64,000 bases of DNA from Escherichia phage inny. Under the pieces are notes generated by a model. That model had not been told where the DNA came from. It made no database searches and was given only the letters and a program-made list of their open reading frames with translations. The first letter of the stretch is position 1; every line of letters begins with the position of its first letter. The stretch lies in sequence record MN850601.1, one strand, 5' to 3'. This document shows, piece after piece, positions 43,446-46,196 of this stretch. The position numbers were made by a program, and so were the translations under genes.

Positions 43446-43521
43446 GGTTCCATAGCTCACTGACGAGAGCGCACACCTCATAAGTGTCGAGGGCAGGGAT
43501 TGTAACCCTGGGGAACCACCA
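43446..43521 (+). tRNA. tRNA-like gene, anticodon CAT (Met or Ile2), non-canonical T-loop ATTGTAA
   Basis: Hand fold: acceptor GGTTCC/GGAACC, D-arm GCTC...GAGC, anticodon loop CTCATAA, T-stem CAGGG/CCCTG, encoded ACCA end. Confidence 0.45.
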
Positions 43522-43552
43522 TTTAAAAGGAGGTGCTATGCATCTCCTATAT

Positions 43553-43638
43553 GCAAGTGTGGTGGAATTGGTGATACACATTGTGCTTAAAACGCAACGC
43601 TTAAATGATTGAGGGTTCGAATCCCTCCACTTGCACCA
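43553..43638 (+). tRNA. tRNA-Leu (anticodon TAA), type II
   Basis: Hand fold: acceptor GCAAGTG/CACTTGC, anticodon loop CTTAAAA, long variable arm, T-arm GAGGG-TTCGAAT-CCCTC, encoded CCA. Confidence 0.75.
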
Positions 43639-43640
43639 AC

Positions 43641-43746
43641 GCCTAGTAGGGTATTTGGTAATTCCGAGGCCATCAAAGCCTGAAAAATATGTTAGACCGT
43701 TTTGTCTAACTAAATACGAAATATGGTTCGATTCCATAACTAGGCT
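43641..43746 (+). tRNA. atypical long tRNA-like gene (106 nt); possible anticodon TCA (opal-reading) - uncertain
   Basis: Perfect acceptor GCCTAGT/ACTAGGC and T-arm TATGG-TTCGATT-CCATA; candidate anticodon loop CATCAAA; 7-bp hairpin in extended variable region; no encoded CCA. Confidence 0.3.
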
Positions 43747-43781
43747 CCCGATTTAAATAGTAATTTTTTAATAAAAATATC

Positions 43782-43810
43782 TTGACATTTACTTAGTTTT
43801 TTGTTATAGT
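43782..43810 (+). promoter_or_regulatory. sigma70-like promoter (TTGACA-N17-TATAGT)
   Basis: Near-consensus; transcript would start right at tRNA-like gene at 43822. Confidence 0.55.
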
Positions 43811-43821
43811 CATTATGAAAA

Positions 43822-43903
43822 CGGGGTGTATCTCACCTGACTTCTAATCAGGCGTTAACCGAGTAATTGGAGTATGCAGGTTCGAATCCTGTCACCCCGG
43901 CCA
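43822..43903 (+). tRNA. tRNA-Arg-like (anticodon TCT) with non-canonical architecture (no D-arm, 23-nt insert before T-arm)
   Basis: Perfect acceptor CGGGGTG/CACCCCG, anticodon arm CCTGA-CTTCTAA-TCAGG, T-arm GCAGG-TTCGAAT-CCTGT, encoded CCA; only 7 nt between acceptor and anticodon stem. Confidence 0.4.
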
Positions 43904-43920
43904 AAAAGTTTTAAAAACTA

Positions 43921-43949
43921 CTTGACAAGCAAGATAGTTTTATGTTAGA
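43921..43949 (+). promoter_or_regulatory. sigma70-like promoter (TTGACA-N17-TTAGAT)
   Basis: Consensus -35; upstream of tRNA-Ser. Confidence 0.45.
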
Positions 43950-43965
43950 TTTAAAGTATGGTAAC

Positions 43966-44055
43966 AGGAAGGTAGGGCGCAGCGGTGCGCAACCAGGTTT
44001 GAACCCTGGCCCATTGTAGCGATACGGTGATGGTTCGACTCCATTATCTTCCTCC
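43966..44055 (+). tRNA. tRNA-Ser (anticodon TGA), type II
   Basis: Hand fold: acceptor GGAAGGT/ATCTTCC, anticodon arm CCAGG-TTTGAAC-CCTGG, long variable arm, T-loop TTCGACT, encoded CCA. Confidence 0.65.
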
Positions 44056-44236
44056 AAATTCGCTTAGGAGCTTTATGAATTATAAAACTATTGGACAGAT
44101 TGTTACCGGAGTTAAGATTGTAAATAATAAAGTTGTTTATGAGTATTCTAATCTTCAACAATCTGAAGATGGTAAGAATATTCGTATGGTAAAAGCAGAA
44201 CAAAAAGATTCCGGTTGTTTTGAATAATTAAGAACG

Positions 44237-44321
44237 GTAGATTGGTGAAATGGTAGCCACAACAGTTTGCTAAACTGTCGTCGGAAACGGCGTGTAGGTT
44301 CAAGTCCTACATCTACCGCCA
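44237..44321 (+). tRNA. tRNA-Ser (anticodon GCT), type II
   Basis: Hand fold: acceptor GGTAGAT/ATCTACC, anticodon arm ACAGT-TTGCTAA-ACTGT, variable hairpin CGTCG-GAAA-CGGCG, T-arm GTAGG-TTCAAGT-CCTAC, CCA. Confidence 0.7.
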
Positions 44322-44491
44322 AGTTATCTTTAATGTAGCTTGTTGCTCTTAGTTGCTTGGTGTAACTTTTTGGAAGGATGGCTGCAACCATCTTACTTTA
44401 ATAGAGTAAACTTTCGGCAGATGGCCCCCACCATCTTACCGATACCTCATAGTTAGTGGTGCGAACACTGGCTATTTTAAAGATAATTTAT
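44322..44491 (+). other. unassigned structured spacer inside tRNA array (two GATGG-loop-CCATCTTAC hairpins)
   Basis: Repeated motif CCATCTTAC and hairpins resembling the 3' end of adjacent tRNA-Ser; no complete cloverleaf found by hand. Confidence 0.3.
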
Positions 44492-44567
44492 ACATCGTTA
44501 GCTTAGTTGGTAGAGCAAGGGGCTTTTAACTCCAAGGTCGAAGGTTCGAATCCTTCACGATGTACCA
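44492..44567 (+). tRNA. tRNA-Lys (anticodon TTT)
   Basis: Hand fold: acceptor ACATCGT/ACGATGT, D-arm GCTT-AGTTGGTA-GAGC, anticodon loop CTTTTAA, T-arm GAAGG-TTCGAAT-CCTTC, CCA. Confidence 0.7.
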
Positions 44568-44572
44568 AACAC

Positions 44573-44659
44573 GTAGGTATCGCATAGCGGCAATTGCTGG
44601 AGACTGTAAATCTCCTGCCCTTCGGGGCTTCGTTGGTTCGAGTCCAACTACCTGCACCA
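44573..44659 (+). tRNA. tRNA-Tyr (anticodon GTA), type II
   Basis: Hand fold: acceptor GTAGGTA/TACCTGC, anticodon arm GGAGA-CTGTAAA-TCTCC, variable hairpin, T-arm GTTGG-TTCGAGT-CCAAC, CCA. Confidence 0.7.
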
Positions 44660-44666
44660 AATTAAA

Positions 44667-44751
44667 GATGGATTGGCCTAGTGGTTGGGCGACGGACTGT
44701 TAATCCGTGAACGAAAGTTCTAGCAAGGTTCAAATCCTTGATCCATCGCCA
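44667..44751 (+). tRNA. tRNA with Asn-type anticodon arm (GTT) but long 15-nt variable arm
   Basis: Hand fold: acceptor GATGGAT/ATCCATC, anticodon arm ACGGA-CTGTTAA-TCCGT, variable hairpin GAAC-GAAA-GTTC, T-arm CAAGG-TTCAAAT-CCTTG, CCA. Confidence 0.6.
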
Positions 44752-44905: not shown

Positions 44906-44927
44906 ATTTAACTCTAAAGGAGTGTAT

Positions 44928-45251
44928 GTGACAGAAAAAGAGTTAGAGAAATATTTTAATATCAATGTTTTCGATGGTTTTGATGATATTGAAGATGTTG
45001 AAAGATATTATGAAGTAGAGTTAGATAAGGATAACATTGTAATTCTTTCTGCCACTTATGATTGTGCATATTATGAAGGCGAATCTCACGTTTATTTCTA
45101 TGATATGAAAACATCTTTGTTTTATGAAGTACACGCATATCATTGTTCTTGTTATGGCTTAGAAGGTCAGTGGGAACCTGAAGAAATAGGTGATTTGAGC
45201 TTTACGGTTGCATATCTAAACAGACGTGGTGCATCTACTATTTTAAAATAA
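44928..45251 (+). CDS. hypothetical protein embedded in tRNA array (about 107 aa)
   Basis: ORF track 44829-45251 trimmed to GTG after AAGGAG RBS to avoid overlap with tRNA-Thr; Cys/His/Tyr-rich. Confidence 0.45.
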   Translation: MTEKELEKYFNINVFDGFDDIEDVERYYEVELDKDNIVILSATYDCAYYEGESHVYFYDMKTSLFYEVHAYHCSCYGLEGQWEPEEIGDLSFTVAYLNRRGASTILK

Positions 45252-45265
45252 ATATTAAAAGCCTC

Positions 45266-45295
45266 TTGACAAAGGGGCTAATAATATGTTAGAGT
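45266..45295 (+). promoter_or_regulatory. sigma70-like promoter (TTGACA-N17/18-TAGAGT)
   Basis: Consensus -35 upstream of tRNA-Gly. Confidence 0.45.
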
Positions 45296-45306
45296 AATAT
45301 TGTTAA

Positions 45307-45381
45307 GCGGGTATAGTGTTAATGGTAGCATATGAGGTTTCCACCCTCCAGGTGCAGGTTCAAGTCCTGTTACTCGCTCCA
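45307..45381 (+). tRNA. tRNA-Gly (anticodon TCC)
   Basis: Hand fold: acceptor GCGGGTA/TACTCGC, anticodon loop TTTCCAC, T-arm GCAGG-TTCAAGT-CCTGT, CCA. Confidence 0.65.
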
Positions 45382-45479
45382 AGATTATTTAAATGGAATC
45401 GCTAGAGAAAATTTCTCTTTTCGCTCATGGTTTTCTCCTTCAAACTCTAGCGGTTCTTTTTAAGTGATTTTTAGTTTTA

Positions 45480-45554
45480 TTGGAGATTAGCCTAGTGGGA
45501 AGGCAACGGCCTTTGAAGTCGTGATGACTAGGTTCGATTCCTAGATCTCCAGCC
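45480..45554 (+). tRNA. tRNA-Gln (anticodon TTG)
   Basis: Hand fold: acceptor TGGAGAT/ATCTCCA, D-arm GCCT-AGTGGGA-AGGC, anticodon loop CTTTGAA, T-arm CTAGG-TTCGATT-CCTAG, CCA. Confidence 0.7.
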
Positions 45555-45561
45555 AATATTT

Positions 45562-45637
45562 ACAGTGCGTAGCGCAGTTGGTAGCGTGGGAGCCTTGGAC
45601 GCTTCAGGTCGCAGGTTCGAGTCCTGCCGCACTGACC
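45562..45637 (+). tRNA. tRNA-Pro (anticodon TGG)
   Basis: Hand fold: acceptor CAGTGCG/CGCACTG, D-arm GCGC-AGTTGGTA-GCGT, anticodon loop CTTGGAC, T-arm GCAGG-TTCGAGT-CCTGC, CCA. Confidence 0.7.
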
Positions 45638-45642
45638 AAATT

Positions 45643-45717
45643 TGCAGAGATAGCTGAGACGGATTAGTGCTACCCTGAAAAGGTAGAAAGGATGGATCGT
45701 TACCATCTCTCTGCACC
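45643..45717 (+). tRNA. tRNA-Phe (anticodon GAA), T-loop ATCGTTA
   Basis: Hand fold: acceptor GCAGAGA/TCTCTGC, anticodon arm CTACC-CTGAAAA-GGTAG, T-stem GATGG/CCATC, CCA. Confidence 0.65.
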
Positions 45718-45795
45718 AGATAACACCATCCAAGGAGAATACTTGGTTAACTGTCAATAGCACATTGAGGCTTCTTACAGTGGTGTACTTATTAT

Positions 45796-45880
45796 GGCTA
45801 AGTGGTGGAATGGTATACACGATACGCTTAGAACGTATTGCCCCAAGGGATTGTGAGTTCGAGTCTCACCTTAGCTACCA
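45796..45880 (+). tRNA. tRNA-Leu (anticodon TAG), type II
   Basis: Hand fold: acceptor GGCTAAG/CTTAGCT, anticodon arm ATACG-CTTAGAA-CGTAT, long variable arm, T-arm GTGAG-TTCGAGT-CTCAC, CCA. Confidence 0.7.
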
Positions 45881-45895
45881 AATTATTACAGGTTT

Positions 45896-45974
45896 CGCGG
45901 GATAGAGGAGTCTGGTCGTCCTCGCCAGTTTCATATGCTGGAGATCGTAGGTTCAAATCCTACTCCCGTTACCA
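45896..45974 (+). tRNA. tRNA-Met/Ile2 (anticodon CAT)
   Basis: Hand fold: D-arm GAGG...CCTC, anticodon loop TTCATAT, T-arm GTAGG-TTCAAAT-CCTAC, acceptor 3' TCCCGTT, CCA. Confidence 0.6.
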
Positions 45975-46018
45975 ATAAATACCTCCCTTCTGGTGTAATG
46001 ATTAAATTACATTGACAC

Positions 46019-46115
46019 TTCAAGGAACTCATAGCCGGGTAGATTTAAAAGAGTATGGTACTCAATATGGCTCCAAACCATAGATCAGGGGGTTCGATTC
46101 CTCACCTTGCTGCCA
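46019..46115 (+). tRNA. tRNA-Trp-like (anticodon CCA) with displaced/imperfect 5' acceptor strand
   Basis: Canonical anticodon arm TATGG-CTCCAAA-CCATA, T-loop TTCGATT and encoded CCA; only 5 of 7 acceptor pairs and about 23 extra nt in 5' half. Confidence 0.35.
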
Positions 46116-46120
46116 ATTAT

Positions 46121-46196
46121 TGTGGTATCGTACAGATGGTTAGTACACTCGACCGATAATCGAGAAACAACGGTTCGACTCCGTTTACCACGACCA
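46121..46196 (+). tRNA. tRNA-Ile (anticodon GAT)
   Basis: Hand fold: acceptor TGTGGTA/TACCACG, D-arm GTAC-AGATGGTTA-GTAC, anticodon arm CTCGA-CCGATAA-TCGAG, T-arm AACGG-TTCGACT-CCGTT, CCA. Confidence 0.7.

Follow-up and report, generated by a model that had tools for sequence, protein, structure and literature searches.

Three conserved non-cloverleaf tRNA-type genes in a phage tRNA array, one of them probably a tRNA-Arg(UCU) with an internally permuted D domain

Do all the genes of a phage tRNA array encode cloverleaves? The question is raised by an array of transfer RNA (tRNA) genes at positions 43446-46196 of a 64,000-nucleotide (nt) stretch of Escherichia phage inny (record MN850601.1), the whole of which is called the window here. 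A preliminary description of the window, folded by hand, listed about 15 canonical tRNAs with encoded CCA ends, and at least four further loci with tRNA-like anticodon loops that break the cloverleaf. That reading is partly supported: it proves right in spirit and needs correction in detail. The array consists of 15 cloverleaf tRNAs and three conserved non-cloverleaf tRNA-type genes, which we call elements A, B and C. ARAGORN in bacterial mode misses all three, in line with the claim that some of these are real tRNA-type genes off the cloverleaf, and the Rfam covariance models do not fold every locus as a standard tRNA: B aligns only with its D arm deleted, and A and C fall below threshold. 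Each atypical locus has homologues in other phage lineages, and because the stems of these homologues covary, the loci are not chance resemblances. The best explanation overall, which we consider reasonably probable from sequence comparison, is a phage tRNA cluster that includes three maintained non-canonical tRNA-type RNAs, of which B would be a decoder of AGA codons with a permuted D domain.

Element B first appeared as a tRNA with an Arg-TCT loop, no room for a D arm and a 23-nt insert. The tRNA model of Rfam (RF00005) gives it 38.6 bits at 43822-43900, above the gathering threshold of 29 bits, in an alignment that deletes the D arm (4 nt stand against 15 model positions) and inserts 20 nt before the T arm; ARAGORN calls it in none of the modes tried. 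The perfect acceptor, anticodon and T helices, the loop CTTCTAA, the 7-nt connector and the 23-nt stretch all stand as described, but the D domain is permuted and not simply missing, as a covarying helix of 3 base pairs (bp) reveals. From 5' to 3' the parts run: acceptor 5' strand, U-A-U, strand 1 of this helix, one nucleotide, anticodon arm, a spacer of 4-8 nt, strand 2, U-AANNGGA, 2-6 nt, AU, T arm and acceptor 3' strand.

The structure was assessed on 151 distinct sequences from phage and metagenome contigs, retained after a filter for intact helices, and on two alignments, one of 23 sequences (A4) and one of 40 diverse sequences made with MAFFT (A9). In A4, 98.7% of cells are paired and the covariation score reaches 0.835, shuffles giving 0.209. 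For the whole structure in A9, 97.4% of cells are paired and 18 of 20 pairs show double changes; the score of 0.94 compares with 0.21 in shuffles and 0.13-0.17 when the partners are slid. In these alignments pairing in the acceptor, anticodon and T helices ranges from 91 to 100%, and all of them covary. No member has a D hairpin, and the acceptor and anticodon stems are always 7 nt apart.

The long-range helix joins the three bases after TAT to the three bases directly 5' of the TAANNGGA motif. Strand 1 and strand 2 read CTC/GAG in 60 sequences, CGG/CCG in 26, CCC/GGG in 15, CGC/GCG, CAG/CTG and CAC/GTG in 7 each, CTT/AAG and TCC/GGA in 3 each, and seven more Watson-Crick combinations are found. 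In 138 of the 151 sequences all three pairs form; the share of paired cells is 97.1%, against 59.3% (standard deviation 1.9, maximum 65.8%) in 2000 shuffles. The corresponding columns of A9 (11-13 with 40-42) are 96.7% paired, with double changes at 3 of 3 pairs. When the search pattern left the connector free, it was recovered as TATCTCA in 59 of 60 matches and as TATCTCA or TATCTCC in all 60; TAA..GGA was kept wherever the insert was free, and AT directly precedes the T stem in 151 of 151 sequences although the pattern did not ask for it. The first hint of pairing between connector and insert came from contig L057 (13332-13429), which holds two permuted-type Arg genes: a CCU gene with the standard scaffold, and a UCU copy that has diverged, its connector being TATGCCG and its insert AGAAAGCTAATTGGATAGAACAT.

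Two other foldings of the B insert were tried. A mini-hairpin predicted by RNAfold (YCG-AGUAAN-YGG, with a GNRA-type loop) fitted the first 45 sequences; because it pairs in just 43% of cells over the 151, the connector-insert helix is preferred. An extra 2-bp CG/CG helix proposed by RNAalifold is missing from the subfamilies with short spacers. At the level of secondary structure, then, covariation among the sequences shows the anticodon arm to be enclosed by an analogue of the D stem, and the term internally permuted tRNA-Arg suits B better than D-armless. Like a cloverleaf, it has an acceptor of 7 bp, an anticodon stem of 5 bp under a 7-nt loop with U33, and a T stem of 5 bp with a TTCRANN loop; what it lacks is the local D hairpin. 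It is not D-armless in the mitochondrial manner, in which the D stem and the contact between D and T loops are absent and a non-canonical T loop is tolerated, given its D-stem analogue, GG motif and canonical T loop. Nor is it a circularly permuted gene, with the 3' half ahead of the 5' half and a circular processing intermediate: the acceptor 5' strand lies at its 5' end, and the 3' strand with CCA at its 3' end.

B is a large family, essentially restricted to phages and nearly absent from bacterial genomes. BLAST matches at 82-100% identity over at least 80% of the element occur in at least 233 GenBank phage records, from Felixounavirus, Justusliebigvirus, Vequintavirinae and one 109-kb Klebsiella phage. 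Pattern scans found the element on IMG/VR contigs of 8 to 360 kb, and at no fewer than 120 metagenome loci from freshwater, marine, soil and gut samples. A scan of bacteria and archaea, with one genome for each of 185,579 species, returned three contigs of metagenome-assembled genomes only.

What could such an RNA do? Its sequence makes decoding of AGA the most likely function. The anticodon loop is CTTCTAA in 146 of the 151 sequences and CTTCTAC in four; the last one has TTCCTAA, with the anticodon CCU, also Arg. A purine discriminator is found in 134 and an encoded CCA in 96. Arrays point the same way. Among loci with at least five ARAGORN tRNAs, 70 carry B only, 9 canonical Arg(tct) only, 4 both and 2 neither (Fisher p = 9e-8, for a set in which the loci lacking B were not sampled at random), while canonical Arg(acg/tcg/ccg) genes co-occur freely with B. 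B and canonical Arg(tct) can also be seen to exchange in place. In Ounavirinae, phage SarahDanielle has a canonical tRNA-Arg(UCU) where LPML1 has B, between flanks that are about 97% identical; in Vequintavirinae, Leu(taa) and Cys are separated by canonical Arg(tct) in loci L089-L091 and by B in KpS8 and L014. Phapecoctavirus, a sister genus, carries canonical Arg(tct). In the window itself ARAGORN finds no canonical tRNA-Arg, and AGA accounts for 12.7 per 1000 codons and 29% of Arg codons in the open reading frames (ORFs), a usage several-fold above that of E. coli.

How might the permuted parts assemble? In a normal tRNA the D stem is stacked on the anticodon stem. In B the 3-bp helix would stack directly on the anticodon stem, with the GG motif leaving its other end towards the T loop; in effect segment 10-21, the 5' strand of the D stem plus the D loop, would have been moved into the variable region. 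We take AANNGGA to be the D-loop consensus A14-R15-Y16-Y17-G18-G19-A20/21, the start of the connector to be U8-A9, and the invariant U before the T stem to be a Levitt-type partner for A15. G18/G19 could then still reach the T loop, U8, A14, R15-U48 and A20 would be kept, and the RNA would fold to a near-normal L shape with altered strand connectivity. The identity set of E. coli ArgRS comprises C35, U36 or G36, A/G73 and A20 in the D loop. In B, C35 and U36 are invariant, a purine at 73 is usual (the 134 sequences above), and the A directly after GG, which presumably equals A20, the main identity base, is invariant too. RNase P and 3' trimming would mature the RNA, CCA being added if it is not encoded, and the product would be charged by host ArgRS and read AGA, replacing the canonical phage tRNA-Arg(UCU). 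There is an engineered precedent for part of this path: a D-arm-less tRNA is accepted by E. coli HisRS, EF-Tu and ribosomes, turnover by PNPase being limiting (PMC11551756). The wider claim seems to us evenly balanced: on it, phages would widely carry a class of tRNA-Arg, B, whose D domain is internally permuted, which host ArgRS charges and which decodes AGA on unmodified bacterial ribosomes, and C and A would be further independent examples.

Element C was introduced as a Trp-CCA-type locus at 46019-46115 with a perfect acceptor and about 23 extra nt in its 5' half. The locus is real and non-cloverleaf, but its 5' end lies at 46033 and the extra sequence amounts to 9 nt, the connector being 11 nt long in place of the 2 nt at positions 8-9 of a cloverleaf, and the D loop 3 nt. 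Nor is the acceptor perfect: AGCCGGG/CCTTGCT has one C.U mismatch and one G.U pair. The Rfam tRNA model does not report C. ARAGORN in mitochondrial mode calls Trp(cca) at exactly 46033-46115, drawing a cloverleaf with the D stem GATT/ACTC and a 14-nt loop; this stem is unpaired in the homologues from Klebsiella KP13-26, Citrobacter Tr1 and SarahDanielle, where a mini hairpin covaries instead. Homologues at 76-80% identity come from KP13-26 and Tr1 (Stephanstirmvirinae) and from Hafnia-type Ounavirinae (SarahDanielle, LPML1), and relaxed pattern scans yielded no further members. Over the 7 distinct sequences the consensus opens with an acceptor of 7 bp and a connector of 11 nt, xARxUUUxAAx; a hairpin of 5 bp with the loop UGG comes next, then an anticodon stem of 5 bp, a variable loop of 5 nt and the T arm. 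Of all cells, 93.5% are paired, and double changes occur at 9 pairs, four of them among the five of the D hairpin. The loop CUCCAAA, A1-U72, G2-C71 and G73-CCA are invariant (7/7), and loop, both pairs and G73 together agree with the identity set of E. coli TrpRS. No locus with C has a canonical tRNA-Trp, and no syntenic swap between the two was found; L014, considered as a source of canonical tRNA-Trp in the C slot, is a Vequintavirinae-type array and not a relative of the window. On fewer data than for B, the most probable reading of C is a tRNA-Trp(CCA) with a D domain rearranged in another way, the 11-nt connector being followed by the 5-bp hairpin and its UGG loop.

Element A, at 106 nt and with its extra 7-bp hairpin, is as first described. 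Its sequences point to a conserved RNA of tRNA shape whose variable domain is enlarged. Homologues are found in Henunavirus, in Ithacavirus (Schitoviridae)/an N4-like Salmonella phage, in Mydovirus and in several uncultured lineages. Over the stems (7-bp acceptor, 4-bp D stem with the loop UUUGGYAA, 4-bp anticodon-type stem, T stem) 97.7% of cells are paired, and the covariation score is 0.456 against 0.208 in shuffles, across at least four lineages. The variable region measures about 27-40 nt across lineages and about 40 nt in inny; its hairpin differs in sequence between lineages, and the flanks GAAAA and AAUACAUAG are conserved. The discriminator is T, followed by CCC and not CCA. The window's type of A has the loop CAUCAAA, with A33 in all type-1 members, and other members have 6-nt loops (CAUCCA, CCUCCA, CAGCCA), UUUUUAA or UUUAUAA. 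Because relatives carry such varied 6- or 7-nt loops, the loop of A is not constrained as that of a decoder.

Several names have been put to element A. In Rfam it matches the tRNA-Sec model best, at 29 bits, and the A sequences tested score 29-39 bits against a threshold of 47; for A, B and C alike, no Rfam family besides tRNA and tRNA-Sec was found even at permissive thresholds. The copy in Henunavirus phage Hena1 is annotated as tRNA-sup(tca), and A departs from opal suppressors and tRNA-Sec, both with U33 and the anticodon UCA in a 7-nt loop, by its A33, and from tRNA-Sec (8/5 or 9/4, a 6-bp D stem, G73) by its 7/5 arrangement, 4-bp D stem and U73 as well; given A33 and the UUU/UAU or 6-nt loops of its relatives, an opal suppressor is doubtful. 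ARAGORN in intron mode proposes a tRNA-Leu(caa) with a 24-nt intron, which conflicts with the conserved structure. We find a tRNA mimic or decoy the most natural reading of A, by way of speculation, and the inny copy may be decaying. Some Justusliebigvirus genomes without A have an extra tRNA-Met or an HNH/homing-endonuclease gene in the array (e.g. phage Paula, L002 3498-3573), and the array behaves as a set of exchangeable cassettes. Arrays of Vequintavirinae (L008, about 2056-2130; L014, reverse complement 7226-7300 and 8901-8970; L091) hold more "tRNA-???" genes, to which ARAGORN gives 2-base anticodons, that is, 6-nt loops. One of these directly adjoins a homologue of A, and non-decoder tRNA-like genes appear to be common in such arrays.

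A number of observations weigh against reading A, B and C as maintained tRNA-type RNAs with B as a decoder. One third of the B family lacks an encoded CCA, and in several of these members (L015, L021, L023, L030) pairing between leader and trailer lengthens the acceptor helix to 12-13 bp, which is unusual for substrates of RNase P. The co-occurrence test suffers from the sampling noted above, and four loci have both B and canonical Arg(tct). The long-range helix is just 3 bp long and imperfect in 13 of 151 sequences, while the permuted-D model gives the conserved 4-8 nt spacer (CGUUAAYC in inny) no role. The mapping of U8-A14, A15-U48, G18/G19 and A20 is drawn from sequence motifs, as is the label A20 itself. 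C is a small family, with mismatches in acceptor and T stems. A is present in only about 30 of some 57 Justusliebigvirus records, has no CCA (TCCC in inny, TTCA in others) and has a mismatched first acceptor pair in Escherichia phage vB_EcoM_ESCO32.

Could the three elements be something other than adaptors? They might be non-decoding tRNA mimics: decoys or sponges, or nuclease-resistant stand-ins, directed against tRNA-targeting host defences or a tRNA-depleting phage nuclease, with the altered D domain or loop there to escape or trap an anticodon nuclease or a tRNA-modifying toxin. Evasion of anticodon nucleases by phage tRNAs is an established theme. The scaffold of A, which carries loops of 6 or 7 nt that include a tRNA-Lys-like UUUUUAA and a tRNA-Sec-like loop with A for U33, is hard to square with decoding, and the invariant connector and D-loop-like motifs of B, its members without CCA and their extended terminal helices would also suit a mimic. 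B, however, alternates with canonical tRNA-Arg(UCU) in one slot and is seldom found together with it; its loop is of the decoder type, with U33 and A37, its sole anticodon variant is again an Arg anticodon, and it keeps the 7/5 acceptor-T stack, R73 and, mostly, CCA. An escape variant would moreover still decode, so that for B and C this reading overlaps with the one we favour. As an account of all three elements we think it unlikely, though worth keeping in view.

A less probable proposal, to which we give little credence, is that A, B and C are tRNA-shaped processing signals, serving as punctuation for RNase P/Z or RNase E, or regulatory RNAs acting in cis or trans. The acceptor/T minihelix, the part recognised by RNase P and RNase Z, is indeed the best conserved module of all three, small ORFs are interleaved in the array, and the loop of A is free of decoder-like constraint. 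Punctuation has no need of an invariant Arg loop, a D-loop-like GG, R73 or CCA, however, and leaves the mutual exclusion between B and canonical tRNA-Arg(UCU) unexplained; canonical tRNAs already flank every position of the array. The elements might also be without function, as tRNA pseudogenes in decay or scars of rearrangement, of the kind common in phage arrays. Two spacers (44752-44830 and 45719-45795) do hold degenerate tRNA-like folds, and A has the gaps already listed, from its absence in about half of the Justusliebigvirus genomes to its missing CCA in inny and the mismatch in ESCO32. Against this stand compensatory substitutions in A, B and C across phage families and subfamilies, the 97% pairing in four helices and the invariant loops of 151 distinct B sequences, and a near-consensus promoter of B's own. 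Helices of pseudogenes would not survive such divergence, and covariation already contradicts this account for B and C; overall it is very improbable. That the atypical folds are hand-folding errors and all loci are standard cloverleaves has practically no chance and is refuted for A, B and C: the Met-CAT gene at 43446 is indeed a standard cloverleaf and ARAGORN's mitochondrial mode does draw one for C, with its 14-nt D loop, but bacterial mode fails on all three elements and every mode tried fails on B, Rfam must delete the D arm of B, no B member has a D hairpin, and the D stem drawn for C is unpaired in homologues in which the mini hairpin covaries.

The array that houses the elements comes from a Justusliebigvirus (phi92-like, Stephanstirmvirinae) phage of E. 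coli. Its 3.1-kb stretch is 98.7% identical to that of ESCO32, which has the same annotated tRNAs, and 94-99% identical to those of about 55 other Justusliebigvirus genomes. The records of these relatives annotate 15 or 16 tRNA genes and a few small ORFs; the A, B and C loci are unannotated in nearly all, and "tRNA-OTHER" in a few. ARAGORN in bacterial mode reports 15 tRNAs in the window's array, all on the plus strand and all with an encoded CCA (15/15), which bears out the 15 or so canonical genes of the preliminary description; its list had left out Asn-GTT. Thirteen of the 15 reach the gathering score of the Rfam tRNA model, as does 43822-43900. The interleaved promoters are borne out as well. 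With a strong sigma-70-type promoter defined by at least 10 of 12 matches and a TG extension, three sites lie within the array (Table 1) and one upstream of it (43112-43141); that at 43782-43810 ends 12 nt before element B. The TTGACA at 46012 was rejected as a promoter, having no matching -10 element. As a whole, the array would supply decoders for A/U-ending codons, heavily used by this 37%-GC lytic phage and poorly read by the host.

Table 1. Features of the inny tRNA array and parts of elements A, B and C (positions in the window).
Feature	Position	Strand	Evidence or detail
tRNA gene array	43446-46196	+	ARAGORN, Rfam, ESCO32 identity
tRNA with anticodon CAU (Met-CAT)	43446-43521	+	ARAGORN; not reported by Rfam
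tRNA-Leu(TAA)	43553-43638	+	ARAGORN, Rfam
Element A, tRNA-like gene	43641-43746	+	homologues, covariation
A acceptor	43641-43647/43739-43745	+	
A D arm	43650-43665	+	
A anticodon-type stem	43667-43670/43678-43681	+	4 bp, loop CATCAAA
A variable region	43682-43721	+	hairpin 43691-43710
A T arm	43722-43738	+	
Promoter-like site TTGACA-17-TATAGT with TG extension	43782-43810	+	11/12 matches
Element B, tRNA-Arg(UCU)-type gene, permuted D domain	43822-43903	+	Rfam 38.6 bits, covariation
B acceptor 5' strand	43822-43828	+	pairs with 43893-43899; A9 100% paired, double changes at 6/7 pairs
B 5' connector TATCTCA	43829-43835	+	TAT read as U8 A9 U10; CTC 43832-43834 is helix strand 1
B anticodon arm CCTGA-CTTCTAA-TCAGG (UCU)	43836-43852	+	5/5 pairs covary in A9
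B strand 2 GAG	43861-43863	+	partner of 43832-43834; covariation
B TAATTGGA then GTAT	43864-43875	+	D-loop-like motif (A14 R15 Y16 Y17 G18 G19 A20/21; motif itself 43864-43871), then variable-loop-like stretch ending AU
B T arm GCAGG-TTCGAAT-CCTGT	43876-43892	+	covariation alignments
B discriminator G and CCA	43900; 43901-43903	+	
Promoter-like site upstream of tRNA-Ser(TGA)	43922-43951	+	10/12 matches, TG extension
tRNA-Ser(TGA)	43967-44056	+	ARAGORN; Rfam gives only tRNA-Sec model, 35 bits
tRNA-Ser(GCT)	44236-44321	+	ARAGORN, Rfam
tRNA-Lys(TTT)	44492-44567	+	ARAGORN, Rfam
tRNA-Tyr(GTA)	44573-44659	+	ARAGORN, Rfam
tRNA-Asn(GTT), 85 nt, extra variable-arm hairpin	44667-44751	+	ARAGORN, Rfam
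tRNA-Thr(TGT)	44831-44905	+	ARAGORN, Rfam
Promoter-like site upstream of tRNA-Gly	45266-45295	+	promoter matching, TG extension
tRNA-Gly(TCC)	45307-45381	+	ARAGORN, Rfam
tRNA-Gln(TTG)	45481-45555	+	ARAGORN, Rfam
tRNA-Pro(TGG)	45563-45638	+	ARAGORN, Rfam
tRNA-Phe(GAA), T loop ATCGTTA	45644-45718	+	ARAGORN, Rfam
tRNA-Leu(TAG)	45796-45880	+	ARAGORN, Rfam
Anticodon-CAU tRNA, initiator-like (C1 x U72 mismatch, T loop TTCAAAT)	45896-45974	+	ARAGORN, Rfam
Element C, tRNA-Trp(CCA)-like gene	46033-46115	+	homologues, covariation, ARAGORN mitochondrial mode
C acceptor	46033-46039/46105-46111	+	
C connector	46040-46050	+	
C mini D hairpin GAGTA-TGG-TACTC	46051-46063	+	
C anticodon arm	46066-46082	+	loop CTCCAAA
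C T arm	46088-46104	+	
C G73 and CCA		+	
tRNA-Ile(GAT)	46121-46196	+	ARAGORN, Rfam

Among the 15 cloverleaves, Met-CAT had been counted with the broken folds on account of its T loop ATTGTAA. The loop is as stated, but ARAGORN calls the gene and it folds as a cloverleaf, in which only the loop sequences are unusual (the D loop ACTGACGA has no GG, and the T loop has A54 and U58). A homologue in the T4-like Erwinia phage FBB1, with the T loop ATCGTAA, has covarying acceptor, anticodon and T stems, and the two have the unusual T loop AUYGUAA in common. tRNA-Phe, like Met-CAT, has A54 and U58 in place of T54 and A58, which looks like a swapped reverse-Hoogsteen pair; the oddities of both genes are variants of loop sequence and not breaks of the fold. 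The class-II-like extra arm of tRNA-Asn(GTT), GAAC-GAAA-GTTC, is uncommon in a tRNA-Asn of bacterial type, and Asn genes of like length are annotated in KKP 3954, Tr1 and KpS8. The CAT tRNA at 45896-45974 begins with CGCGGGA and has A73 besides its C1 x U72 mismatch; its T loop is that of E. coli tRNA-fMet, and the gene looks like an initiator.

The spacers of the array have features of their own. That at 44322-44491 (170 nt) contains a pair of similar hairpins, GGATGG-N6-CCATCTTAC, and another of 10 bp whose heptaloop is T-loop-like, and is 83-87% identical to spacers of Vequintavirinae phage A7_1 (L009) and contig L092. The spacer at 45382-45480, 84% identical in Klebsiella KP13-26 and Citrobacter Tr1, forms a long-range hairpin of about 23 bp around some 39 nt (z = -4.1 against shuffles) and could be a processing site or a small RNA. 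After tRNA-Ile, the spacer at 46197-46275 is 87-92% identical in Tr1 and KP13-26 and has a T-arm-like hairpin, GGAGG-GGTGCGA-CTCC; its predicted fold is not significant. The degenerate cloverleaf-like folds at 44752-44830 and 45719-45795 are conserved within Justusliebigvirus only and are probably tRNA remnants.

If the favoured reading of B is true, a natural tRNA family with another connectivity exists in hundreds of Enterobacteria phages (Felix O1-like, phi92-like, rV5-like, T5-like and jumbo) and in metagenomes, and the bacterial translation machinery routinely accepts another tRNA architecture. Outside mitochondria, B would be the first adaptor tRNA in nature to depart from the cloverleaf, and C and A would show phage arrays exploring tRNA architectures that cellular genomes do not. 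What selective force rewired the D domain, whether a defence nuclease, a modification enzyme or RNA turnover, is a question that B raises; the wiring was possibly selected to evade recognition of the D arm by a host or phage factor. The family also offers a ready-made, evolution-tested scaffold for orthogonal tRNA engineering. Finally, it exposes a blind spot of tRNA finders: ARAGORN misses B-type genes, and GenBank shows nothing, "tRNA-OTHER" or spurious ORFs in their place, so that codon-usage and tRNA-complement studies of phages are biased.

How does B compare with known systems? According to a 2024 paper, all known bacterial tRNAs are cloverleaves and natural arm-less tRNAs occur in mitochondria only (PMC11551756); the 8/4 and 9/3 tRNAs that Mukai et al. 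described in bacteria and phages deviate in a way other than B's. A full-text search (D-arm-less, non-canonical, unusual phage and suppressor tRNAs, Hena1), outside which most subscription journals lie, found no published description of A, B or C. The closest relative of B is canonical tRNA-Arg(UCU), such as E. coli argU and the genes of SarahDanielle, Hena1 and KKP 3954: the CUUCUAA loop is identical, the T arm GCAGG-UUCGAAU-CCUGY similar, and the 7/5 stack, R73, CCA, the A-R-Y-Y-G-G-A motif and the array slot are shared. B differs in having no D hairpin; the strands of its 3-bp analogue are split by the anticodon arm, and the D-loop-like motif sits at the position of the variable loop.

In metazoan mitochondrial tRNA-Ser(AGY/GCU), the anticodon helix has been proposed to be extended by pairs between connector and variable region, as in B. 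These tRNAs, too, have no D hairpin and a short connector between acceptor and anticodon (PMC11551756). B, in contrast, retains a D-loop-like motif with GG as well as a canonical T loop, which makes an elbow contact possible, and it is encoded by phages and would work with unadapted bacterial translation. Circularly permuted tRNAs of Cyanidioschyzon merolae and archaeal split tRNAs likewise have a non-standard order of segments (PMC3218864), but there processing restores a canonical tRNA, whereas the order in B is internal and presumably persists in the mature RNA, with no bulge-helix-bulge or splicing implied. The engineered "mini HisT" suppressor has no D hairpin and is yet used by an E. coli aminoacyl-tRNA synthetase, EF-Tu and the ribosome (PMC11551756); it is synthetic, has no analogue of D stem or D loop, is unstable and needs a pnp mutation, whereas B is natural and widespread, with its D elements reordered. 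For A, the nearest comparison is with tRNA-Sec, allo-tRNAs and class II tRNAs, which have a long variable region with a hairpin, allo-tRNAs also placing polymorphic loops on one scaffold (PMC5389517); A departs from this group in its 7/5 arrangement (not 8/5, 8/4 or 9/3), its 4-bp D stem with an 8-nt loop, the conserved single-stranded stretches GAAAA and AAUACAUAG on either side of its variable hairpin, its A33 or 6-nt loop, and U73. The fold of B was not found described outside mitochondria; judged by its score and by three of its four arms it is a tRNA, and probably by its function as well.

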